Assembly (NCBI GenBank): GCA_964504275.1 | Contig: CAZDDV010000002.1 | Location: forward strand, 12,822-76,821 | Source of the DNA: an uncultured Candidatus Saccharibacteria bacterium | GTDB taxonomy: Bacteria > Patescibacteriota > Saccharimonadia > Saccharimonadales > JAGQNJ01 | DNA length: 64,000 nucleotides | Reading direction: 5' to 3' | Part shown: positions 49,110-57,310 of the stretch, one piece after another | How the letters are laid out: every line of letters begins with the position of its first letter | Position numbering within the stretch: position 1 is the first letter of the stretch | The notes under the pieces: model-generated | What the model saw: the letters and a program-made list of their open reading frames with translations, nothing else | Database searches by the model: none | Told to the model about the DNA's origin: nothing | Position numbers and translations under genes: made by a program

Positions 49110-49517
49110 TTAATTTATAACTACTCTGAGTATCAATACTGCAACAATAGAAACAGCGGCAGTCAGCACTGTTCCCCATAATAAATCGACAATAGTAACT
49201 ATAGGTGGCCAGTTTTTTAATGTTGCCTGATTGGTTAGATCATACGTGGCGTACGTAACCAGACCGTACAATGCACCAAGTAACCCAATTTTCACTAAAC
49301 TGTCTATATTTTTCCACCCTGGGTAGACAATGAATATCGTAACGCCCAAAATAAATATTAAATAAAAGGCTATTGCCGCCCACCAGTTTGGTTTATCGGC
49401 CATTATGAATCCAATATGCTTTTTGTAGAACGCTGGCGCTATCAAACCGAGCCATGCTGCATCAAGCACTGTCATTGTCCCAAGCGAAGTTAAGAATGCA
49501 TAGAAGTAATTAGTCAT
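49110..49517 (-). CDS. DUF2177-like membrane protein
   Basis: 135 aa with four TM helices. The family call is from recollection. Confidence 0.5.
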   Translation of the reverse strand: MTNYFYAFLTSLGTMTVLDAAWLGLIAPAFYKKHIGFIMADKPNWWAAIAFYLIFILGVTIFIVYPGWKNIDSLVKIGLLGALYGLVTYATYDLTNQATLKNWPPIVTIVDLLWGTVLTAAVSIVAVLILRVVIN

Positions 49518-49559
49518 ATGAATATTGTAACAAAAACTCCCTTGCAGGAGTTCTTATTT

Positions 49560-49636
49560 TGGAGGGCCCACTGGGACTCGAACCCAGGACACCCTGCTTA
49601 AAAGGCAGGTGCTCTAACCGGCTGAGCTATGGGCCC
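49560..49636 (-). tRNA. tRNA-Lys (UUU)
   Basis: Reverse complement folds as GGGCCCA-TA-GCTC-AGCCGGTTA-GAGC-A-CCTGC-CTTTTAA-GCAGG-GTGTC-CTGGG-TTCGAGT-CCCAG-TGGGCCC-T-CCA. Confidence 0.9.
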
Positions 49637-49893
49637 ATATTTATGGTGAATGAAAGGTGTTGCTCATGATAAAAGCTCGTTCGTGCTGCTCGGTTAGAAC
49701 ACGGTGCTTATTATTATCTTTTCGATGAAACAAGTTCATCGAGGGCGGCTGAGTTACGAGCCCTTGTTTGGCTTACGTGCAAGACGTAAAACAGGGTAAA
49801 TTATCTCTGTTTTTGGTAAAAAAGTCAACGGTAGCTTTGATTACTACGGATCTGTGATTTAATACGATTAATCACCAGGGCATTTGGAAAAAC

Positions 49894-51339
49894 GTGAATC
49901 AAACAAAAATTTGGCGGTGGACGAGTGTGCTGATTGTGGCTTTGACTGTTTTTTTGGGCGGTCTAGGTTTTGCGCGGCTAGCGTTTTGTTTGCTGATTAT
50001 TTTTTGTGCGTCGGTATTTTTCTTGGCTTTTGGATTTTTGTTACGAACGCGAAAGCCAAAAGTTTTTTACATTTTATTTATAATCTTTGCGTTTGTGGCG
50101 GGCTGGATGCAAGGAACTATTCATATGCAAAAACTCGCCGCCTACCAAACGACATTTGGGCAGGCTGTTGTTTTGGAAGTTACCGCGCGCGAAGATTCGT
50201 ATTATAACGACAAATCGCAAATGGAGTTTTCGGCGAGTAATGTTGTACAGACCGAACCAGCACAAACAAAACTGCCCGGGCAAATTATTGTTAATGGCCG
50301 CGGCGTGCCGATGGTCTACCGCGGTGACCGATTGAAAATATCGGGCAAGTTGTTTCCACGGCGCGGAGCAAACCAGGCTGGCATGGGCTTTGCAAATATT
50401 GAACTTTTGGCTCGCTCACCCACAAAGCTCGACACGTTTCGCCGAAACTTCGCCGCCAGCATGCAAAATGTTTTGCCAGAACCGCTGGCTAGTTTTGGCC
50501 TAGGCTTACTAATCGGCCAACGAACATCGTTGGGCTCAGCGGTTAATGATCAACTTACAAACGTTGGGCTGATTCATATCGTCGCGGTTTCGGGCTATAA
50601 CCTGACGGTGATTGTAATGATTGTGCGTCGGCTGTTCGAAAAAAGATCGCGCTACCAAGCATTCATAATTTCTAGCGTTTTAATCGGATTATTTTTGTTA
50701 ATTACTGGAGGCAGTCCGTCGATTGTACGCGCGGCGGTGGTGAGCGGCGTGAGTTTGGTGCTGTGGTATTTTGGCCGTAAGATTCGCGGTGTTTTGATTT
50801 TGATGATTTCTGCTGCATTAACCGCTGGCGTGAACCCCCTGTATATTTGGGGAAACATTGGCTGGTATTTGTCGTTTACAGCTTTTTTTGGCGTGCTGGT
50901 GTTGGCGCCGTTGTTGCTGGTAAGGTTCAAAAAAGCTTGGCGCGAAAATATGCTCATTCAGGTTTTGGCCGAAACCACCGCCGCTCAACTTTGCACATTG
51001 CCAATTATTTTATTCATATTTGGCAGGTTGTCGGTCGTCAGTATTATTGCAAATTTGCTCGTCGTGCCACTCGTGCCGCTGGCAATGTTTTTTAGTTTGG
51101 TTGCTGGTTTGGCGAGTTTGTTTCATGCGCCGTTGTTATTTTTGTTAGCACTGCCTGCACGATTGTTGCTGCGATATATGATTGATATTTCTTCACTGCT
51201 GGCGCGAGTGCCATACGCAAATGTTGAGTTTCAGATATCTAGCTGGCAGATGATTGCGTTGTACATTTTGATTTTGCTGCTGACGATTATACTTTGGTTC
51301 AAAAATAAAAATGGTACAATAACAGGGAAGAAAACATAG
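49894..51339 (+). CDS. comEC: ComEC/Rec2 DNA internalisation channel (no beta-lactamase-like domain)
   Basis: 481 aa, polytopic, with GLIHIVAVSGYNLTVIV. Confidence 0.8.
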   Translation: MNQTKIWRWTSVLIVALTVFLGGLGFARLAFCLLIIFCASVFFLAFGFLLRTRKPKVFYILFIIFAFVAGWMQGTIHMQKLAAYQTTFGQAVVLEVTAREDSYYNDKSQMEFSASNVVQTEPAQTKLPGQIIVNGRGVPMVYRGDRLKISGKLFPRRGANQAGMGFANIELLARSPTKLDTFRRNFAASMQNVLPEPLASFGLGLLIGQRTSLGSAVNDQLTNVGLIHIVAVSGYNLTVIVMIVRRLFEKRSRYQAFIISSVLIGLFLLITGGSPSIVRAAVVSGVSLVLWYFGRKIRGVLILMISAALTAGVNPLYIWGNIGWYLSFTAFFGVLVLAPLLLVRFKKAWRENMLIQVLAETTAAQLCTLPIILFIFGRLSVVSIIANLLVVPLVPLAMFFSLVAGLASLFHAPLLFLLALPARLLLRYMIDISSLLARVPYANVEFQISSWQMIALYILILLLTIILWFKNKNGTITGKKT

Positions 51340-51348
51340 GGAGCAATC

Positions 51349-52062
51349 ATGTCCGGACACTCAAAATGGGAGACTATCAAAAGAGCCAAAGGCGCTAACG
51401 ACGCCAAGCGCGGCGCTTTGTTTACCAAACTTGGAAACATGATTGCGATTGCTGCTCGCGGCGGCGCTGACCCAGACACAAACTTTAACTTGCGATTAGC
51501 GATCGATAAAGCAAAAACGGCCAATGTTCCGAATGCAAATATTCAGCGATCAATCGACCGTGGCAGCGGAAAACTTGGCGGCGAACAAATACAAGAAGTC
51601 ATGTACGAAGGTTATGGACCGGGTGGCGTAGCAGTTTTGGTTTCGTGCGCAACTGACAACGTAAACCGAACGTATCCGATGGTAAAATTGGCGTTTAGTA
51701 AACACGGTGGAAACATCGCCGAAAAAGGTTCAGTGGCCTATCAGTTTGATCGCAAGGGTGTGATCCGCGTCAAAGGTATTGGCGAAGATTTACTACTGCA
51801 AGTTTTAGATGCTGGCGCAGATGACGCTGCCGAAGAAGAGGGCGAAATGACTGTTTTTACTGATCCAAAAGAGTTGGCAAAAGTTCGCGAAAACTTGCAA
51901 GCCGCAAATGTCGATATTGAAAGTGCCGAACTCACATTTGTACCAAAAAAAACCGTTCTTGTTGATGATGAAGCGACGATCGGCAAAGTCATGCGCGTTA
52001 TGGAAGCGCTTGAAGACCTCGACGACGTTGTCGATACCTACACAAACTTTGATAGTAAATAA
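51349..52062 (+). CDS. yebC: YebC/PmpR-family regulator
   Basis: 237 aa starting MSGHSKWETIKRAKGANDAKRG. Confidence 0.9.
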   Translation: MSGHSKWETIKRAKGANDAKRGALFTKLGNMIAIAARGGADPDTNFNLRLAIDKAKTANVPNANIQRSIDRGSGKLGGEQIQEVMYEGYGPGGVAVLVSCATDNVNRTYPMVKLAFSKHGGNIAEKGSVAYQFDRKGVIRVKGIGEDLLLQVLDAGADDAAEEEGEMTVFTDPKELAKVRENLQAANVDIESAELTFVPKKTVLVDDEATIGKVMRVMEALEDLDDVVDTYTNFDSK

Positions 52063-52156
52063 TTTTTCGGGGTAAGCAAAAGAATTTTGTTGACAGCAAT
52101 TTTTTTGCGTGTATAGTCATCGGCATTAAGCAATGAAAGTCCAAAAAGGAGGCATC

Positions 52157-53773
52157 ATGAGCTTTTATTTTTTTACCCCAAAATTCGCAGTACGAATTTT
52201 TATCGCAGCGCTTTCGCTAGCGATTTTTTTAAACGGTTTGTTGCCCGGCTTTGCTTTTGCAGATACACAAAGTCTTGTTATTAATGAAGTTCAAACCGGA
52301 GGCATTGGCACCGGAAACGCGGGCCAAGAATTTATCGAACTAAAAAATACCAGTGCGGAATCCACAAATGTTTCCGGCTGGAAAGTCGTCTATTCGTCTA
52401 GTACTGACGCATCGAAATACACAATCGTCGAACTGCAAGGCGAAGTTATCGCGGGAGGTTTTGTGTTGCTCGTTTCCAACTCGTATCTTGTGCCTGGTGG
52501 CGTCACGCCCGATCTTTTGTTTGCATATAACAGCGGGATGTCAGGAGTTGGTGGTCACATCAAACTTGTCGACAATTTGAACCAGGAGCGCGATCGATTA
52601 GGTTGGGGGAGTGCGCAATTCGCCGAAACACTACCTGCTTTAGCGCCAGATCCAGGGAAATCTTTGCAGCGCGAAGGGGAAGATAGCGACGATAATTCAA
52701 AAGATTTTTTGGTGGACAGTCCAACGCCAAGTGGCGGGGATTTAAAACCAGTCACAGAACCAGAACCCGAGCCTGAACCAGAACCAACCGAATATTTGCC
52801 GATTACAATTACCGAACTTTTGCCCGATCCGGCCAGCCCAAAACTTGATAGCGAAGATGAATTCATAGAATTATATAACCCAAACGACGAAGCAGTATTA
52901 TTAAAAGATTATGTATTGCAAACCGGCAGTAGTTTCCAGTATTCGTATAAATTGCCGGCGTTTAGTATTGAGCCCAAAAAATACATGGCGCTGTATTCGA
53001 GCGAAACAAACTTGACCCTAAGTAACACTTCCAGTAAAGCAAGAATCAGTGACCCAAACGGCAAAATTTTATTTACGACGGATGAGTATAATTCGGTTAC
53101 CGAAAATAACGCGTGGGGATTGTTCGATGAATCGTGGCAGGCGACAAATCAACCCACGCCCGCCAGCGCCAACAAAGCGAGTAGCATCGAACAAGAAATT
53201 GTAGAATCAGAAAATGACGAAGAAGGTCCTGTGCCCTGCCCGGCTGGCAAGTTTCGAAACCCCGCCACAAACAGATGTAAAATGATTGATTCAGAATCCG
53301 GGCTAAAACCCTGCAATCCTGATCAGTTTAGAAATCCAGAAACCAATCGATGTAAAAAAATTGAAACTTCCAATGGTCTGCTGCCTTGCTTGGCTGGACA
53401 ATATCGTAACCCTGAAACTAACCGGTGCCGCGCAACCGCGAGTGCGAGCTCTGTTTTGAAACCCTGCAATCCCGATCAAGTGCGCAACCCGGCTACAAAT
53501 CGTTGCAAAAAGAAAGATTCAGACTCTGATCTCAAACCATGTGCCGCCGGGCAAGAACGAAACCCTGATACAAATCGTTGCCGAAAAGTTGCTGGTGTGT
53601 CAACAACAAATCCGCTTGCCACCCCCGCCGCTGCAGCAACGACAAAAACTAGTGTTAGCTACCCGGCAATGATTGCTGTTGCGGCATTGGCAGTTGGATA
53701 CGGCGTGTTTGAATATCGTCAAGAAATAAAGCGGCGCGTGCTAAAAATATTTTCTAAATCTTCGTCTAAATAA
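52157..53773 (+). CDS. surface protein with two lamin-tail domains, five Cys-bracketed repeats and a C-terminal TM anchor
   Basis: AAAGGAGG then the ATG at 52157. Signal peptide ..GFAFA, LTD motifs LVINEVQTGG..EFIELKN and ITELLPDP..EFIELYN, and a PEPEPEPEP linker. TTGACA-N16-TATAGT lies at 52090-52117. Confidence 0.7.
   Translation: MSFYFFTPKFAVRIFIAALSLAIFLNGLLPGFAFADTQSLVINEVQTGGIGTGNAGQEFIELKNTSAESTNVSGWKVVYSSSTDASKYTIVELQGEVIAGGFVLLVSNSYLVPGGVTPDLLFAYNSGMSGVGGHIKLVDNLNQERDRLGWGSAQFAETLPALAPDPGKSLQREGEDSDDNSKDFLVDSPTPSGGDLKPVTEPEPEPEPEPTEYLPITITELLPDPASPKLDSEDEFIELYNPNDEAVLLKDYVLQTGSSFQYSYKLPAFSIEPKKYMALYSSETNLTLSNTSSKARISDPNGKILFTTDEYNSVTENNAWGLFDESWQATNQPTPASANKASSIEQEIVESENDEEGPVPCPAGKFRNPATNRCKMIDSESGLKPCNPDQFRNPETNRCKKIETSNGLLPCLAGQYRNPETNRCRATASASSVLKPCNPDQVRNPATNRCKKKDSDSDLKPCAAGQERNPDTNRCRKVAGVSTTNPLATPAAAATTKTSVSYPAMIAVAALAVGYGVFEYRQEIKRRVLKIFSKSSSK
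53237..53587 (+). repeat. five tandem ~25-aa coding repeats C-x3-[QK]-x-RNP-x-TNRC-[KR]
   Basis: CPAGKFRNPATNRCK, CNPDQFRNPETNRCK, CLAGQYRNPETNRCR, CNPDQVRNPATNRCK, CAAGQERNPDTNRCR. Confidence 0.8.
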
Positions 53774-53795
53774 CCCTGCGCTATAATACAGGCAG

Positions 53796-54266
53796 ATGAA
53801 AATTTTGGGGATCGATCCAGGAACGGGAATTTTGGGCTTTGGCGTCATTGAAGCGACGAAGTCTAGTATGGTTTGTATAGATGCCGGCGTAATTAGAACT
53901 CCGCCCAAACAAGCCGATGCCGATCGTTTGGAAACTATTTTTGATGAACTGTCACAAATTATCAAACAGCACAAACCGCAAGCCATGTCGGTCGAGAAGT
54001 TATTTTTTGCTAAAAACGTAACGACGGCAATGAGTGTCAGCCAAGCCCGCGGCGTGGTTTTGTTACTGGGCAAACAACACAAACTTGATTTATACGAGTA
54101 CACGCCAATGCAAATAAAGCAGGCAATAACAGGTTACGGAAAGGCCGACAAGCCACAAATGCAAGAAATGGTGCGAGTTATTTTAAAGCTTAAAGAAACC
54201 CCAAAACCCGACGACGCCGCCGACGCCCTCGCTGCCGCTATCTGTTGCAGCATGAGTATGTCATAA
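53796..54266 (+). CDS. ruvC: Holliday junction resolvase RuvC
   Basis: 156 aa starting MKILGIDPGTGILGFGVI. Confidence 0.9.
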   Translation: MKILGIDPGTGILGFGVIEATKSSMVCIDAGVIRTPPKQADADRLETIFDELSQIIKQHKPQAMSVEKLFFAKNVTTAMSVSQARGVVLLLGKQHKLDLYEYTPMQIKQAITGYGKADKPQMQEMVRVILKLKETPKPDDAADALAAAICCSMSMS

Positions 54267-54275
54267 TATAGCGAC

Positions 54276-54839
54276 ATGATTGCAACACTCGAGGGAACGG
54301 TAAGCGAAAACAACGCAGACTACATCGTGCTAGATGTTGGCGGTGTTGGGTATGGCGTGTTTGTGGCCGGCGAAGATCACAGCGTTTTGCAAACGGGAAC
54401 AAAAACAAAATTATACATTTACGAACACATTCGCGAAGTTGCGCACGATTTGTTTGGGTTTGTTTTGCCTGAATCTAAAAAACTATTCGAACAACTATTA
54501 AGCGTAAATGGCGTTGGCCCAAAAATGGCGCTGAGTATTTTAAATCTTGGTAGCTCAAAAAATGTTGCCAGCAGTATTGCCAACCAAGACGCCGAATATA
54601 TAAAACAGGCCAGTGGCGTTGGTAAAAAAGTTGCCGAGCGAATCGTACTAGACCTAAAAGACAAAGTTGGCATCGCCGGATCGTTCGTTGGCGCAACGCA
54701 ATCAACCAGCGACGAAGCCGTGCAAGGTTTGATTGCACTCGGCTATACCCTGCCAGACGCCCAAAACGCCCTCGCCGAAATCAACCCAAAACTCCCAACC
54801 GCCGATCGCATAAAACAAGCCCTAAAAGGAAAATCATGA
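54276..54839 (+). CDS. ruvA: Holliday junction helicase subunit RuvA
   Basis: 187 aa with MIATLEGTV and LLSVNGVGPKMAL. Confidence 0.9.
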   Translation: MIATLEGTVSENNADYIVLDVGGVGYGVFVAGEDHSVLQTGTKTKLYIYEHIREVAHDLFGFVLPESKKLFEQLLSVNGVGPKMALSILNLGSSKNVASSIANQDAEYIKQASGVGKKVAERIVLDLKDKVGIAGSFVGATQSTSDEAVQGLIALGYTLPDAQNALAEINPKLPTADRIKQALKGKS

Positions 54840-54894
54840 ATTCCCTATTTTCTGATTACTTTTTACTAATTACTAAAATCCAAAGGATTTTTTA

Positions 54895-55929
54895 ATGGCG
54901 ATTGAACGAATAGTGCAGACTAGTTCTGATGGTGAGGACAAGCAAGAAGAGCAGTTCGAGAATACGCTGCGGCCAAAAGATTTTGCAAATTATACCGGAC
55001 AAGAATTAATCAAAAAAAATTTAAAACTGGCAATTGCGGCTGCAAAGAAACGCGGTGAACCAATTGATCACGTGCTTTTGTACGGCCCGCCGGGTTTGGG
55101 TAAAACAACTTTGGCGAGTGTGATTGCCAACGAAATGGGTGCGCAAATTAGAATCACCAGCGGCCCAGCAATCGAGCGGGCCGGTGATTTGGCGAGTTTG
55201 CTGACAAATTTGCAAGACGGCGACGTATTATTTATTGACGAAATTCACCGACTCCACCGCACGGTTGAAGAAGTTTTGTACAGTGCCATGGAAGATTTTA
55301 AGCTGGACATTATGCTGGGCAAAGGTCCGAGCGCAAAAAGTCTGCGGCTCGATTTGCCGAAGTTCACAATCATTGGAGCCACAACCCGAACCGGCGAACT
55401 AGCCGCGCCACTGCGCGATAGATTTGGCATGATTCACCGACTAGATTTTTATAACGAACAAGAAATTACTACAATTATTAAACGCGCCGCCAGTATTTTA
55501 GGAATCAAAATTGACGAGGCGGCTGCCAAAGAACTTGCCAAACGTTCACGATTAACGCCGCGCATTGCCAATAGACTATTAAAACGCATGCGCGATTACG
55601 CGGATGTAAATGGCGACGGAATTATCGACACGCCAACAACAAACAAGGCGCTCGAACTACTAGAGATTGATGAGTTGGGGCTCGACCCAAGCGACAGACG
55701 TTTACTAAAGGCAATCATCGACCATTACAATGGCGGCCCAGTTGGCGTAGAAACCATTGCGGCAATTATTGCCGAAGAGCGCCAAACAATCGAAGATGTT
55801 CATGAGCCATACCTCATGCAAATCGGGATGTTAGAGCGAACGCCGCGCGGCCGCAAAACAACCAGCAAAGCACACAAGCATATTGGCCAGAGTAAAAAGA
55901 CCACCGATAATCAGCAGTCACTGGTATAA
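54895..55929 (+). CDS. ruvB: Holliday junction helicase RuvB
   Basis: 344 aa with [14 protein letters not shown] and FIDEIHRL. Confidence 0.95.
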
Positions 55930-55936
55930 TATATCC

Positions 55937-56542
55937 ATGCACGAACAGCCCAAAATCCATAAAACAGCCGACCAAGGCCGTAGCCACTTATCGGCAACCG
56001 GTAAGCGCTTTTTTGGATTGATAGAATTTGATGACAGTGAAGAGCTATTACTCGAAATTCGCAAGCACCCATTCGGCCTATTTATAATCGTTCTCGGTGG
56101 TGCGTTAATTTCGATAACAGTTTTGTTGTCTTCGTTGGGGCTGGCTGCAAGTGGAGTTTTGGCCGAGGTAGATATTACGGGTGCCGAACAATTTTTGGCC
56201 CTGATTGGTTTTGTGCTTTCGGTGCTCACTTTTGTAGTGACATTTGTTTACGCATATTTGTATCAAAGCAACGTCGTGTATATCACTAACGAAAAAGTTG
56301 CCCAAGTTTTATACATCACACTTTTTAACCGCAAGATTTCACAGCTTAATATCGGTGATGTCCAAGATGTAACCGTTACACAAAAAGGTATTTTTGCTCA
56401 CGCATTTAACTACGGAACATTAGTAATCGAAACAGCTGGTGAGCAACAAAACTACAGTTTTAGTTTTGTGCCAAATCCGTATATGGTGTCAAAAGTGATT
56501 ATTGTGGCGCACGAAGTAAACCTCAAGCAATACGGAAACTAA
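55937..56542 (+). CDS. bacterial PH-domain (YdbT/DUF304-like) membrane protein
   Basis: 201 aa from the ATG at 55937, with LLLEIRKHPFGLF followed by two TM helices. Confidence 0.6.
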   Translation: MHEQPKIHKTADQGRSHLSATGKRFFGLIEFDDSEELLLEIRKHPFGLFIIVLGGALISITVLLSSLGLAASGVLAEVDITGAEQFLALIGFVLSVLTFVVTFVYAYLYQSNVVYITNEKVAQVLYITLFNRKISQLNIGDVQDVTVTQKGIFAHAFNYGTLVIETAGEQQNYSFSFVPNPYMVSKVIIVAHEVNLKQYGN

Positions 56543-56579
56543 AACTAACCAAAACTACATATCCGAACTTTTGTACTAA

Positions 56580-57038
56580 CTAGTTAAAACTTTTTTGTAC
56601 GTACACCCCACCGCCTTCGTATGTTGCGGTTAGTGTATAGCTTTCACACAATTTTTCTTTTGAGTTGTCGCAGCCATCTGGCGTTACTTGATATGAATAC
56701 GCGCCCGGAGCAGGTTCTGCAACAAGTACGCCGTCTTCGCCTTTTGGATCTTGCAGCATTGCTTGGCTAAGTCCGCGTAAGTTTTCGGCTCGCCAGCCTT
56801 CAAAACCGGCTAACTCGTTAACTTGTGCGAGCGACGGATAGTGATCTTTCTGGCCATAGTAGTATTCTACTCGGTTGTGGATTTCTTTTACTTCGGCTTC
56901 GCGGTTGCGGTTTCTGTCATTGCGTTGAATATCACCCAAGGTTGTAATAATAAGCGTTGCCAAAATACCAATGACAATAATGACAATCAACAGTTCGATA
57001 ATTGTAAAACCTTGATTTTCCTGTTTTAGCGAGATCAT
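56580..57038 (-). CDS. type IV pilin (PilA-like)
   Basis: MISLKQENQGFTIIELLIVIIVIGILA. A GGAAGGTGG RBS sits before the ATG at 57038. Confidence 0.8.
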   Translation of the reverse strand: MISLKQENQGFTIIELLIVIIVIGILATLIITTLGDIQRNDRNRNREAEVKEIHNRVEYYYGQKDHYPSLAQVNELAGFEGWRAENLRGLSQAMLQDPKGEDGVLVAEPAPGAYSYQVTPDGCDNSKEKLCESYTLTATYEGGGVYVQKSFN

Positions 57039-57310
57039 GTAATCCACCTTCCGTGAAATGTGCGTGCTGACTATATTTGTAGTCTTGCTACACGCGCCCT
57101 ATCTAACAAATCTGTACATAATATATAGCCTTAAGCATGAAGCGGTCAAGTAGTAACTGTGTTTGCGGGGTGAGCGAACTTGTCCAAGATTGCCTAATTT
57201 TAACGTAGCAATTAGTACTACGCAAAATAGGCGCATCAAGGACTGCCAGATGTGCAGGCATGATATACTTGGACCACACAATCACCGGGTGAGGAGTGGA
57301 GGAAAACTAT

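Follow-up and report, generated by a model that had tools for sequence, protein, structure and literature searches.

A core Saccharibacterial membrane protein with lamin tail domains and a juxtamembrane array of cysteine-bracketed hairpins

The gene at 52157-53773 of the 64-kb stretch of DNA analysed here (the window) encodes a type I membrane protein and is a core gene of Saccharibacteria. Its product joins two lamin tail domains (LTDs) to a membrane-proximal array of five cysteine-bracketed hairpin units, and the core of these units appears to equal that of the 2-cysteine adaptor (PF08793), a motif described as giant-virus-specific and thus also found in bacteria, in an experimentally accessible setting. 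Saccharibacteria are tiny parasites that live attached to other bacteria; to our knowledge, roles have been established for very few of their surface proteins. The gene described here (the LTD gene) is phylum-wide, invariant in design and required for growth on the host in the sole genome-wide fitness data set, that of Southlakia epibionticum. It was not discussed in the text of any paper found, and the Tn-seq study gives the Southlakia gene, SEML1_0775, in a supplementary table without discussing it. We consider it concrete and tractable for studies of how CPR bacteria attach, build their envelope or capture nucleic acids.

Gene, protein architecture and family

The encoded protein was 100% identical to a 538-aa product present in databases (P0001). 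The longest mechanical ORF call ran from an in-frame upstream ATG (52133-53773); we preferred the start at 52157 because a GGAGG sits 4 nt upstream of it. The promoter proposed in a sequence-only reading of this DNA corresponds to a promoter-like site in the yebC-LTD gene intergenic region, the top sigma-70 consensus match (11/12) across 49500-56700 (7.2 kb). The closest relative (L001) has the same hexamers at the same spacing, and most other relatives checked have boxes of the TTGACA type; the gene probably has its own promoter. The features of the gene and protein are as follows.

52090-52117, + strand: promoter-like site TTGACA-N16-TATAGT (consensus match only)
52148-52152, + strand: Shine-Dalgarno GGAGG, separated by 4 nt from the start codon at 52157 (read from sequence)
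52157-53773, + strand: CDS of the 538-aa LTD/Cys-repeat membrane protein (ORF; stop codon included)
52157-52261, + strand: putative signal peptide, residues 1-35 (K9/R12, hydrophobic core, cleavage-type site between AFA and D; AlphaFold2 helix 9-26)
52265-52726, + strand: lamin tail domain 1, residues about 37-190 (PF00932, AlphaFold2; net charge -11)
52727-52798, + strand: acidic Pro/Glu linker including PEPEPEPEP (translation, Tandem Repeats Finder)
52799-53161, + strand: lamin tail domain 2, residues about 215-335 (PF00932 best stretch 215-304, AlphaFold2; net charge -10)
53162-53227, + strand: acidic spacer, residues 336-357 (net charge -6; low pLDDT at 350-355)
53228-53590, + strand: five Cys-bracketed hairpin units in tandem array, repeating every 25-26 aa (net charge +11)
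53591-53653, + strand: low-complexity Ala/Thr/Pro-rich pre-membrane segment, residues 479-499 (pLDDT <50 at 481-497)
53654-53713, + strand: C-terminal TM helix (AlphaFold2 helix 502-519), with the conserved motif G-Y-G-x-[YFW]-E-[YW]-R at its end
53714-53770, + strand: short basic cytoplasmic tail, net charge +6 (predicted amphipathic helix; AlphaFold2 helix 521-536)

Pfam, AlphaFold2 and the translation thus bore out the domain order first read from the sequence: signal peptide, two LTDs, PEPEPEPEP linker, five units and TM anchor. The PF00932 match comprised two stretches (E 1.1e-24, 87.3 bits against a gathering cut-off of 34.3), and AlphaFold2 predicted two confident beta-sandwich domains (residues 40-187 and 217-330, pLDDT >90 in both). 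Foldseek placed these closest to the Ig folds of lamin A/C and B1 (TM (target) 0.67-0.74, E 2e-6 to 1e-5), for example 3gef, a lamin Ig fold, for LTD1 (E 2e-6). Both LTDs were strongly acidic (net -21 together), and across the family the median net charge was -29.5 for the LTD ectodomain versus +7 for the array. The linker differed in length between relatives; the DNA under its PEPEPEPEP is a (CAGAAC)n tract spanning 52755-52786 (Tandem Repeats Finder).

The N-terminal hydrophobic segment was kept across homologues (alignment A1), and at the other end of the protein E519 and R521 were invariant and Y515 nearly so. A C-terminal sorting signal of the LPXTG, PEP-CTERM or GlyGly-CTERM type was rejected: no such Pfam or NCBIfam model matched, and the conserved motif terminates the helix on its cytoplasmic side instead of preceding it. 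Signal peptide, C-terminal TM helix and the presence of DsbA and VKOR in a relative all agree with the surface location proposed at the outset, and we predict an extracytoplasmic, membrane-anchored module.

We defined the family by a signal peptide, one to three LTDs, two to six C-x5-R-N-x2-T-N-R-C units with a pitch of 25-26 aa, a TM helix and a [YW]E[YW]R motif, all of which the protein of the window carries. A homology search returned 2176 homologues, and at least 542 species genomes contained the family, nearly all of them with a Saccharibacteria or Saccharimonadales label. The C-terminal module was found in 2202 representative 50%-identity clusters, at the C-terminus in all, and PF00932 was matched in 8/8 longer members tested and in all 87 aligned members. 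Repeat-only homology and exhaustive representative searches gave no free-standing or differently fused bacterial repeat; the repeat-only search yielded nothing but short C-terminal fragments of this same family. The LTD/Cys-repeat architecture is fixed across Saccharibacteria.

The hairpin unit and its likenesses

The five units share the consensus C-x2-[GD]-[QK]-x-RNP-x-TNRC.

53237-53278, + strand: unit 1, CPAGKFRNPATNRC
53312-53353, + strand: unit 2, CNPDQFRNPETNRC
53387-53428, + strand: unit 3, CLAGQYRNPETNRC
53465-53506, + strand: unit 4, CNPDQVRNPATNRC
53540-53581, + strand: unit 5, CAAGQERNPDTNRC

All 10 cysteines of the protein fall inside these units, and the motif was found in no other ORF of the window. 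Each full-length homologue carried 2-6 copies, with 732 of 843 neighbouring pairs at the 25-26-aa pitch and a median distance of 78 aa between the start of the last unit and the C-terminus; the motif is not a chance one, since it recurs in every full-length homologue at fixed spacing. Across the family the C, R, T, R and C of the unit were invariant and the two N nearly so, and the first unit carried a position-specific signature, CPxGK[YF]. After the second Cys, Saccharibacterial units run on as [RK]-[KSN]-[IV]-x-S/T-rich-L-x-P (488 units). Structure prediction, which the sequence-only reading had proposed as a check, gave two short strands per unit beside the LTD beta-sandwiches (unit pLDDT 86-94 in an AlphaFold2 model of the C-terminal module). 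The same reading had called the units strongly basic, which overstates their charge: the array has a net charge of +11 in 121 aa (roughly +2 for each unit), due mainly to the [RK][K] that follows the second Cys, 72% of units of the family have Glu or Asp as the tip residue next to Pro on its C-terminal side, and many 14-residue cores are net neutral. The unit sequence E-T-N-R-C resembles an N-glycosylation sequon, but with Cys in place of Ser/Thr.

At the DNA level the five units were 55-71% identical with synonymous sites scrambled, from which we infer that they are old and under purifying selection. Tandem Repeats Finder detected no DNA-level repeat under the five units; on this null and the scrambled synonymous sites, recent duplication or slippage was rejected. 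An intramolecular disulfide in every unit is suggested by the extracytoplasmic location and by the disulfide machinery of Southlakia epibionticum, which comprises a DsbA (SEML1_0787, class II essential) and a VKOR (SEML1_0178). We regarded zinc binding by pairs of units as unlikely, given the frequently odd number of units and their extracytoplasmic location.

The earlier reading did not recognise the repeat as a named domain. This held insofar as no model matching the repeat reached its curated threshold in this protein; the unit core nevertheless equals that of PF08793 and gives weak matches to PF25314. The repeat would thus be a bacterial cousin of a motif earlier described only in giant viruses. 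In common with PF08793 and the CPxGK-x-RNP-x-TGRC arrays of NCLDV, its two cysteines lie exactly 13 residues apart and bracket Gly (+3), [QK] (+4), Arg (+6), Asn-Pro (+7/+8), Thr (+10), [GN] (+11) and Arg (+12), and the viral units too form tandem arrays, often at a 25-26-aa pitch. These positions come from the column composition of the 488 Saccharibacterial units set against PF08793-positive units; hhalign of Saccharibacterial with PF08793-positive units gave a probability of 98% (E 2.5e-13, 19 core columns), statistics that are partly circular because the viral units were gathered with motif-derived queries. In a Foldseek search of BFVD the leading matches were proteins of Heterosigma akashiwo virus and Feldmannia virus (E 2.5e-5 to 6e-4), and rank 8 went to a protein annotated as a 2-cysteine adaptor.

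The differences are also clear. PF08793 itself (cut-off 22 bits; 25-31.6 bits in positive controls) was matched neither by the whole protein at E<=1 nor by the isolated array at E<=10, nor by any of 87 family members at E<=0.1. The hhalign alignment ends at column 20, and the C-terminal half of the profile, V-K-x-x-G-x-x-G-[KR]-K-I (positions about 19-31), is absent from Saccharibacterial units. These have Asn for the viral Gly at +11, an acidic hairpin tip versus Lys or Ala, and Ser/Asp-rich versus Lys/Pro-rich linkers, and they are extracytoplasmic and bacterial whereas the counterparts belong to eukaryotic viruses, as intracellular or virion proteins. The loci belong to Saccharibacterial genomes with bacterial neighbours and the viral counterparts are separate proteins, which sets these units outside the 'virus-specific' (NCLDV) definition of PF08793.

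A second likeness is to TNFR-like modules. PF25314 (TNFR_nem) was weakly matched in 49/87 family members (best E 2.9e-6); the protein of the window scored 14.8-17.7 bits against a gathering cut-off of 27 over positions 18-34 only, and relatives seldom reached 27 bits (P0074, 27.6), in every case with only positions 17-34 of the 34-position profile, its second half, covered. DPAM places a segment of the Southlakia protein in the ECOD group 'TNF receptor-like' (PMC10633639). The common element, as in the A1-type TNFR module, is a small single-disulfide hairpin of the C-x2-G-x-[YF] type that serves as a bead in extracellular stalks; Saccharibacterial units are parted by 11-12-residue linkers, whereas TNFR modules pack as A1+B2 pairs, and a sequence search of the PDB found no TNFR chain. 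Together with the BFVD 2-Cys arrays, these weak matches hint at a fold class akin to disulfide-rich bead-like modules. A literature search on PF25314, and on LTDs in Saccharibacteria or Patescibacteria, returned nothing relevant.

Elsewhere, NCBIfam held no family covering the repeat, and PDB-chain searches with the repeat region and a 22-column unit profile gave no real match; actinohivin, the sole sequence match (E about 3), was rejected as a chance 'RNAQTGRC' likeness. Foldseek of a repeat-only model against the PDB found nothing significant, the best match being megalin EGF/LDLa arrays (E 0.024, TM <0.25), which in a predicted model says only 'beads of small disulfide modules'.

Genomic neighbourhood and fitness data

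The LTD gene lies in a co-directional cluster in which comEC is 818 bp away, in line with the 0.8 kb first noted.

49894-51339, + strand: comEC (Pfam), upstream neighbour, ending 818 bp before the LTD gene
51349-52062, + strand: yebC, TACO1/YebC family (Pfam)
53796-54266, + strand: ruvC (Pfam, ORF), 22 nt past the LTD gene stop
54276-54839, + strand: ruvA (ORF)
54895-55929, + strand: ruvB (ORF)

No terminator-like site was found on the + strand between 53773 and 53796, and with a gap of 22 nt co-transcription of ruvCAB from the LTD gene promoter is possible; the LTD gene probably heads a transcript that runs on into ruvCAB. The initial description of the gene as inserted into, or interrupting, the yebC-ruvC arrangement is misleading because this is the phylum's ancestral arrangement and not a recent insertion: the order comEC-yebC-X-ruvCAB (X, the LTD gene) was found in 41/80 related loci. 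Just upstream and on the same strand, comEC was present in 57/80 loci, yebC was adjacent in 47/80 and RuvC lay within 2 kb downstream in 52/80, mostly with a gap of 9-86 nt. In 16 further loci comEC-X occurred with neither yebC nor ruvC nearby, 11 loci had none of the three neighbours, and comEC adjacency was kept in at least two clades without yebC and ruvC in the neighbourhood. The gene is thus neither absent from relatives nor randomly placed in them. Its position after comEC-yebC may or may not reflect a functional link. A transglycosylase/PBP gene lies between ruvC and ruvA in Southlakia and several relatives and is absent from the cluster of the window.

Southlakia epibionticum provides fitness data for what is probably the orthologue. 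SEML1_0775 likewise lies in the order comEC-yebC-X-ruvC, and its product has two PF00932 domains with a TNFR-like segment after them (PMC10633639); we infer its orthology and unit content from synteny and the domain layout in the published table. In Tables S1/S2 of that study it is class II essential (Tn-seq calls NE/ES/ES), with insertion sites falling from 53 in the input to 30, 6 and 1, and comEC and yebC are NE throughout, that is, dispensable. In the same study comF and dprA are also not essential, insertions in ruvC are less depleted than those in the LTD gene, and several adhesin-like proteins of the envelope are reported among those essential for growth as an epibiont (PMC10633639). 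Transposon polarity on the downstream ruvC, PBP and ruvA may contribute to the depletion.

These data bear on the DNA-uptake link proposed at the outset. Its genomic part stands, since the comEC adjacency is non-random; because SEML1_0775 is essential and comEC dispensable, a role confined to ComEC-dependent DNA uptake is unlikely.

Candidate roles

We tentatively favour, at somewhat less than even confidence, an essential envelope protein in which the disulfide-stapled hairpin array is a juxtamembrane stalk and the two acidic Ig-like heads are the binders. The signal peptide would be cleaved and the C-terminal helix, with its [YW]E[YW]R motif, would hold the protein in the membrane, followed outward by the low-complexity segment, the beta-hairpin array of 4-6 units (five here) and the two acidic LTDs with their acidic Pro/Glu linker. 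A DsbA/VKOR system would make one disulfide per unit, giving protease-resistant beads, and the mildly basic array, in or across the anionic cell-wall zone, would act as a spacer or anchoring stalk of set length. The acidic LTD heads would thereby be pushed outward and would bind a ligand, of the host cell or the envelope, on which epibiotic growth depends. Conservation of the hairpin loop (R-N-P-x-T-N-R) is very high, which suggests that the loop also contacts a conserved partner, for example a self envelope component or polyanion. Any 'adhesin' label for the protein would rest on analogy and one Tn-seq data set, and host-binding proteins usually vary.

Two observations sit apart from this model. 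The membrane-proximal array is conserved far beyond the need of a passive spacer, which counts against a stalk, and the comEC adjacency in the two or more clades that lack yebC and ruvC nearby is not explained by a pure adhesin.

Other prokaryotic LTD envelope proteins, namely ExeM/Xds nucleases and the haloarchaeal MBL+LTD ComA-like proteins, share with this one a signal peptide, N-terminal LTD(s), a C-terminal membrane or envelope anchor and an association with DNA-processing functions. The Saccharibacterial protein differs from these in having two LTDs and a Cys-hairpin array and no catalytic domain (Pfam detected no nuclease domain), and it is anchored by a simple TM helix whose motif lies on the cytoplasmic side, not by a GlyGly-CTERM or similar sorting signal. 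The NCBIfam ExeM model NF033680, which takes in OB and EEP nuclease domains and a GlyGly-CTERM, scored 14.7 bits against a cut-off of 1300, over the N-terminal LTD region only.

Such parallels enter into a rather unlikely alternative, that the basic array is a DNA receptor which binds incoming DNA at the membrane beside ComEC as an analogue of ComEA, possibly also capturing extracellular nucleic acid for nucleotide salvage. The comEC adjacency points this way, as does the domain content of ComEC, which here comprises the OB (DUF4131) and Competence domains and, as in Southlakia, no metallo-beta-lactamase (MBL) nuclease domain; no ComEA (PF12836, K02237) is annotated in Southlakia. LTDs accompany extracellular nucleases and MBL hydrolases in other prokaryotes, and ExeM without its LTD degrades DNA more slowly in vitro (PMC6085458, PMC5118699). 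With ComEA the protein shares a single-pass anchor, an extracytoplasmic basic module near the membrane and a gene beside comEC; this is a functional analogy only, as the anchor polarity is opposite, HhH and SLBB domains are lacking (no PF12836 in Pfam or NCBIfam scans of the protein), and there is no sequence or fold relationship. Furthermore, the essentiality of the Southlakia gene, versus the dispensability of comEC, comF and dprA, means that ComEC-coupled uptake cannot be its sole job. If the reading were true, it would fill the missing DNA-receptor step of Patescibacterial competence.

The DNA-receptor reading would make each unit a disulfide-stapled finger with an R-N-P tip like the DNA-inserting beta-arm tip of HU/IHF. 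That tip is G-R-N-P-x-T-G (GRNPQTG in HU), and R-N-P-x-T-[GN] likewise lies at the turn of a two-stranded beta ribbon with basic flanks; NPxTG is also a generic turn former. There is no HU body, and the hairpin base is Cys-stapled versus part of a dimer in HU. Viral units gave weak, sub-threshold PF00216 matches, but the likeness is a 6-residue turn motif with an hhalign probability of 12-15%, and homology to HU/IHF was rejected in favour of motif analogy only. Giant-virus units do sit in DNA-associated contexts, between SPKK-like basic linkers and in proteins fused to SAP/Rho_N/HeH, HHH_8 and BRCT domains, and the half of ascovirus P64 that contains the 2-Cys adaptor precipitates DNA; its authors, however, credit this to an Arg-rich insert and not to the 2-Cys motifs (PMC6163548). 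Against DNA binding by the Saccharibacterial array stand its acidic tips and neutral cores, its Ser/Asp-rich rather than basic linkers and the very acidic LTDs.

An extended form of this idea, which we judge improbable, holds that the Saccharibacterial array and its giant-virus counterpart are both nucleic-acid-binding fingers with an HU/IHF-like R-N-P tip, and that the array is the missing ComEA-type receptor beside the MBL-less ComEC, feeding essential nucleic-acid scavenging. Such scavenging would explain why the LTD gene is essential and comEC is not. If correct, the nucleic-acid-finger reading would give the 2-Cys adaptor its first function and link a core CPR surface protein to giant-virus chromatin proteins.

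We give similarly little credence to an envelope organiser, in which the array would bind the cell's own peptidoglycan or an anionic wall polymer and the protein would contribute to wall architecture or division instead of binding host or DNA. In its favour are the basic charge, periodicity, membrane-proximal position and fixed length of the array, and a loop that is extremely conserved over species with presumably different hosts. The PBP gene of the Southlakia cluster fits as well, and in the Tn-seq study the slow class II depletion of SEML1_0775 resembles that of this neighbouring gene (PMC10633639). Countering this, the window's cluster has no PBP, and Pfam and NCBIfam matched no LysM, SH3b, PG_binding or choline-binding module.

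Last, a recombination or repair accessory working with yebC-ruvCAB, suggested by position inside the cluster and by the tight ruvC spacing with probable co-transcription, is already disfavoured and very improbable, as the protein is predicted to be nearly all extracytoplasmic, with about 19 residues in the cytoplasm, and loci of the two kinds described above, the 16 without yebC or ruvC and the 11 without all three neighbours, keep the gene.

The LTD gene, its protein and its neighbours

The mechanical open reading frame at this locus runs from 52133 to 53773 on the + strand. Because GGAGG at 52148-52152 lies 4 nt upstream of the ATG at 52157 and an identical 538-aa protein is present in databases (P0001), the gene likely extends from 52157 to 53773, as a sequence-only reading had placed it. 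The window features discussed here are:

49894-51339, + strand: comEC, encoding a 481-aa ComEC
52090-52117: promoter-like site TTGACA-N16-TATAGT, the top consensus match within 7.2 kb
52157-53773, + strand: lamin tail domain (LTD) gene, likely extent
52755-52786, + strand: (CAGAAC)n tract, hexanucleotide x 5.3, at the PEPEPEPEP linker
53237-53581: five Cys-bracketed units of the LTD gene
53783-53788, + strand: perfect TATAAT
55883-56542, + strand: membrane protein with a bacterial PH domain (bPH_2)
56580-57047, - strand: 155-aa type IV pilin-like protein

Pfam detected two lamin tail domains in the protein (PF00932; 87.3 bits, E 1.1e-24). The AlphaFold2 model, built from an 87-sequence alignment (mean pLDDT 85), contained a helix at residues 9-26 corresponding to a signal peptide that ends AFA before D, two beta-sandwiches modelled with confidence (residues 40-187 and 217-330), and C-terminal helices at 502-519 (TM) and 521-536. 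Both sandwiches matched lamin Ig folds (3gef, 1ifr and 3umn) by Foldseek with E values of 2e-6 to 1e-5. The signal peptide, paired LTDs, PEPEPEPEP linker and C-terminal anchor described from sequence were thus confirmed. Net charge was -11 for LTD1, -10 for LTD2 and -12 for the linkers (family median for the ectodomain, -29.5). A type I membrane protein with two acidic Ig-like heads and a juxtamembrane hairpin-bead array is well supported. The (CAGAAC) tract varies in length among close relatives and may therefore be slippage-prone. In some family members, L030:5989-7686, P0074 and P0100 among them, the stretch between LTD1 and LTD2 (about columns 270-310 of the family alignment A1) holds one or two additional units of ~25 aa that are also Cys-bracketed but follow another pattern, C-x-N-[LI]-x-G-[VI]-Q-x-x-[LV]-P-x-G-Y-x...C.

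The promoter previously proposed for the gene holds up as a consensus match and is identical in the closest relative. No terminator-like site was found in the 22-nt gap between the LTD gene and ruvC, so this candidate promoter may also serve ruvCAB. Within the same gap, the TATAAT lies 7 nt upstream of the ruvC start codon with no recognisable -35, and could mark a leaderless ruvC start or be chance. The bPH_2 gene, whose mechanical open reading frame overlaps the ruvB end, comes after ruvB in most related loci and so belongs to the conserved cluster. Between this gene and recA is the pilin-like gene (N-terminal methylation motif GFTIIELLIV, PF07963); of the 80 related loci, only 2 have a homologue of it in this position.

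Family spread and gene order

A full-length search returned 2176 homologues, and every full-length one has 2-6 units. The best 120 of the 2176 were all LTD proteins, mostly of 480-620 aa, and those with names were Saccharibacteria. Among 599 matches listed (one genome per species), relatives were encoded in at least 542 stretches, nearly all of them from MAGs of Saccharibacteria or Saccharimonadales. The C-terminal module (repeats and TM), searched exhaustively as an HMM, recovered 2202 50%-identity clusters, 962 of them at E<=1e-30; the module was always located at the C-terminus, and LTDs were present in 8/8 longer members tested. The LTD gene therefore represents a phylum-wide family.

Order of the window's neighbour genes, located by tblastn, in 80 related loci (X, LTD gene; contig ends cut several loci of the incomplete classes)
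comEC-yebC-X-ruvC: 41/80
comEC then X directly, without yebC or ruvC nearby: 16/80
yebC-X-ruvC: 5/80
yebC-X: 1/80
X then ruvC: 6/80
X without any of comEC, yebC or ruvC: 11/80

The gene had been taken for an insertion into a yebC-ruvCAB cluster, which is contradicted by both the family's spread and the commonest gene order; the distribution of classes shows instead an arrangement that is ancestral and slowly decaying. Adjacency of comEC and X was its most persistent part (57/80 loci, with comEC upstream). On a rough NJ tree, the 16 loci with comEC directly followed by X were spread over two or more distinct clades; in one of these loci, L030, the gap is 41 nt with a convergent gene next. The family was already in databases under a generic name; the definition of its invariant architecture and its ancestral placement after comEC are new.

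The repeat array and the giant-virus 2-cysteine adaptor

The five tandem units of ~25 aa first noticed in the sequence read C-x2-[GD]-[QK]-x-R-N-P-x-T-N-R-C. All ten cysteines of the protein lie in them, and the motif occurs nowhere else in the 64-kb window. Counting from the first Cys (C0) to the second (C13), C0, R6, T10 and C13 were invariant across 488 distinct units and N7, N11 and R12 nearly so; G3 (76%, otherwise Asp), P8 (88%), [RK]14 and an L-x-P right before C0 were also conserved. Unit pitch was 25-26 residues in 732/843 cases, and the median distance from the start of the last unit to the C-terminus was 78 residues. First units carry the signature C-P-x-G-K-[YF] and last units usually Q-E or Y-E, indicating that units are individually conserved orthologous positions. 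The five units share 55-71% DNA identity with synonymous positions randomised, and TRF found no DNA-level repeat beneath them. The array is ancient and kept by protein-level selection.

When the C-terminal module was modelled alone with AlphaFold2, each unit (pLDDT 86-94) formed two three-residue strands (+4..+6 and +13..+15) flanking the N-P-x-T-N-R loop. Linkers were less certain and pTM was low (0.30); the model suggests beads whose mutual orientation is undefined. The description of the units as strongly basic is overstated: the array has a net charge of +11 (family median +7), mostly through [RK][K] after the second Cys, many 14-residue cores are net neutral, and 72% of units have Glu or Asp next to the Pro on its C-terminal side. 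In P0195 and L082:3342-5213 another pair of cysteines stands ahead of the RNP unit, giving a four-Cys module (C-x2-G-Y-E-Y-x4-G-K-C-Y-K-K-C-...RNPxTNRC). Near-threshold scores of such variants for DUF4215 (PF13948) and Furin-like_2 suggest a continuum with furin/TNFR-type repeats.

That the repeat is no named domain was correct insofar as Pfam and NCBIfam gave no above-threshold match for it in this protein; its core, however, is common to PF08793, the 2-cysteine adaptor domain of giant viruses. Weak matches to PF25314 (TNF receptor-like) occurred in 49/87 family members, mostly under the cut-off and covering only the second half of the 34-position profile. Neither sequence search nor Foldseek with the repeat model found anything significant in the PDB. 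Among predicted viral structures, Foldseek matched one protein of Heterosigma akashiwo virus (E 2.5e-5) and two of Feldmannia virus (E 4e-4 and 6e-4); the eighth-ranked match (E 0.013) carries the annotation '2-cysteine adaptor domain-containing'.

Scanning viral contigs with the Saccharibacterial family pattern recovered units such as LKPCKQGWVRNPETNRCRK on large eukaryotic-virus contigs, N-terminal to DUF6940 or beside Lys/Pro-rich tracts. A G-x2-RNP-x-TGRC DNA pattern matched at least 120 viral stretches, to which giant-virus MAGs contributed many. In 126/154 of the viral matches listed, a Cys, which is outside the search pattern, stood exactly three residues before the Gly, and the consensus among them was C-P-[EP]-G-K-[VI]-R-N-P-x-T-G-R-C-[IV]-K, often in tandem at 25-26-aa pitch with SPKK-like Lys/Pro linkers. 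Giant-virus contigs rich in such units include L081:4986-5849, L084:4809-5591, L083:4716-6173 and L082:3342-5213, and L085-L204 (e.g. L126, L090, L136, L146 and L159) hold very many; on phaeovirus-sized contigs (335,593 and 154,641 bp) units lie N-terminal to DUF6940 (PF22086).

Most giant-virus units are missed by PF08793; several proteins with the viral array exceed its Pfam threshold (25-31.6 bits). In profile coordinates, the two cysteines of PF08793 bracket the same 14-residue loop as the Saccharibacterial unit. Profile-profile comparison of Saccharibacterial with PF08793-positive units gave 98% probability (E 2.5e-13, 19 core columns), statistics that are inflated for the shared columns because the viral sets were collected with motif-derived queries; the first Cys, Pro at +1 and [QK] at +4 are independent agreements. 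The viral domain runs on as V-K-x-x-G-x-x-G-K-K-I, whereas the alignment with the bacterial unit ends there. We read the bacterial unit, on this comparison, as a putative core-only relative or close convergent copy of the 2-cysteine adaptor, and place it in the broad class of single-disulfide TNFR-A1-like hairpins. That the repeat shares the core of a domain thought giant-virus-specific is a new recognition. Assignment to PF08793 or PF25314 themselves was rejected, their curated thresholds not being reached.

Viral units were fused to SAP/Rho_N/HeH, HHH_8 and BRCT domains. A DNA- or chromatin-related setting is recurrent for the 2-Cys unit, as in the viral or metagenomic proteins P0355, P0437 and P0438, which combine it with SAP/Rho_N/HeH, HHH_8 (Pol X-type) or BRCT. 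The adaptor is also fused to OTU peptidases and kinases, and in the virion protein P64 of ascoviruses, which condenses DNA, it makes up the N-terminal half (PMC6163548). The R-N-P-x-T-[GN] loop is identical to the HU/IHF beta-arm tip, but as a six-residue turn motif only (hhalign probability 12-15% against an HU sequence).

Fitness data and possible function

Fitness data for the family were already available in a supplementary table for Southlakia epibionticum (PMC10633639), whose text leaves the gene, SEML1_0775, unmentioned. Its 630-aa product has two PF00932 domains and then a segment assigned 'TNF receptor-like' by DPAM, the sole such assignment in the proteome, and is flagged as a core, Patescibacteria-enriched family. 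SEML1_0775, whose orthology we infer from synteny and domain layout, was called non-essential/essential/essential by Tn-seq, with insertion sites falling from 53 (input) to 30, 6 and 1; polarity on downstream essential genes is possible. Depletion was milder for insertions in ruvC, which separates the LTD gene from the PBP gene, than for those in the LTD gene itself. ComEC and YebC were non-essential throughout, and comEC deletion was viable and abolished transformation (PMC10633639).

This phenotype, unlike that of comEC, leads us tentatively to favour an essential envelope or surface protein, in which the acidic LTD heads would be the binding end and the array would form a disulfide-stabilised stalk of fixed length within the anionic wall zone. 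That screen also found other adhesin-like envelope proteins to be essential, the charge polarity fits, and stalk modules belong to the same fold class.

We consider it unlikely that the protein is instead a DNA receptor: comEC adjacency and the DNA-related setting of viral units would suit this role, but it is weakened by the fact that the gene is essential, by hairpin tips that are acidic and linkers between units that are not basic, and by the very acidic LTDs. Also in its favour, no ComEA (PF12836, K02237 or SLBB) appears in the Southlakia annotation tables (PMC10633639), and the window ComEC (DUF4131 (OB) plus Competence channel domain) lacks the metallo-beta-lactamase (MBL) nuclease domain, as does Southlakia ComEC (SEML1_0777). 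LTDs, too, are associated with nucleases: those of prokaryotes are typically joined to nucleases or phosphoesterases that associate with membranes. MBL and LTD occur together in ComA-like proteins of haloarchaea (PMC5118699), and deletion of the ExeM LTD slowed DNA degradation in vitro, the LTD being dispensable in vivo (PMC6085458). A self-wall-binding or envelope-organising role would account for the extreme loop conservation and seems rather improbable, and participation in recombination with RuvABC is hardly credible because the topology conflicts.

The protein is a variant that joins LTD envelope proteins with 2-Cys/TNFR-like hairpins, both of them known kinds, and offers an experimentally tractable, essential, CPR-specific predicted surface protein. 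The Southlakia DsbA-family protein SEML1_0787 shows the same non-essential/essential/essential pattern as SEML1_0775, which would fit a need for disulfide-bonded surface proteins that are essential, the predicted LTD protein among them, and VKOR is also listed in the Southlakia tables (PMC10633639).
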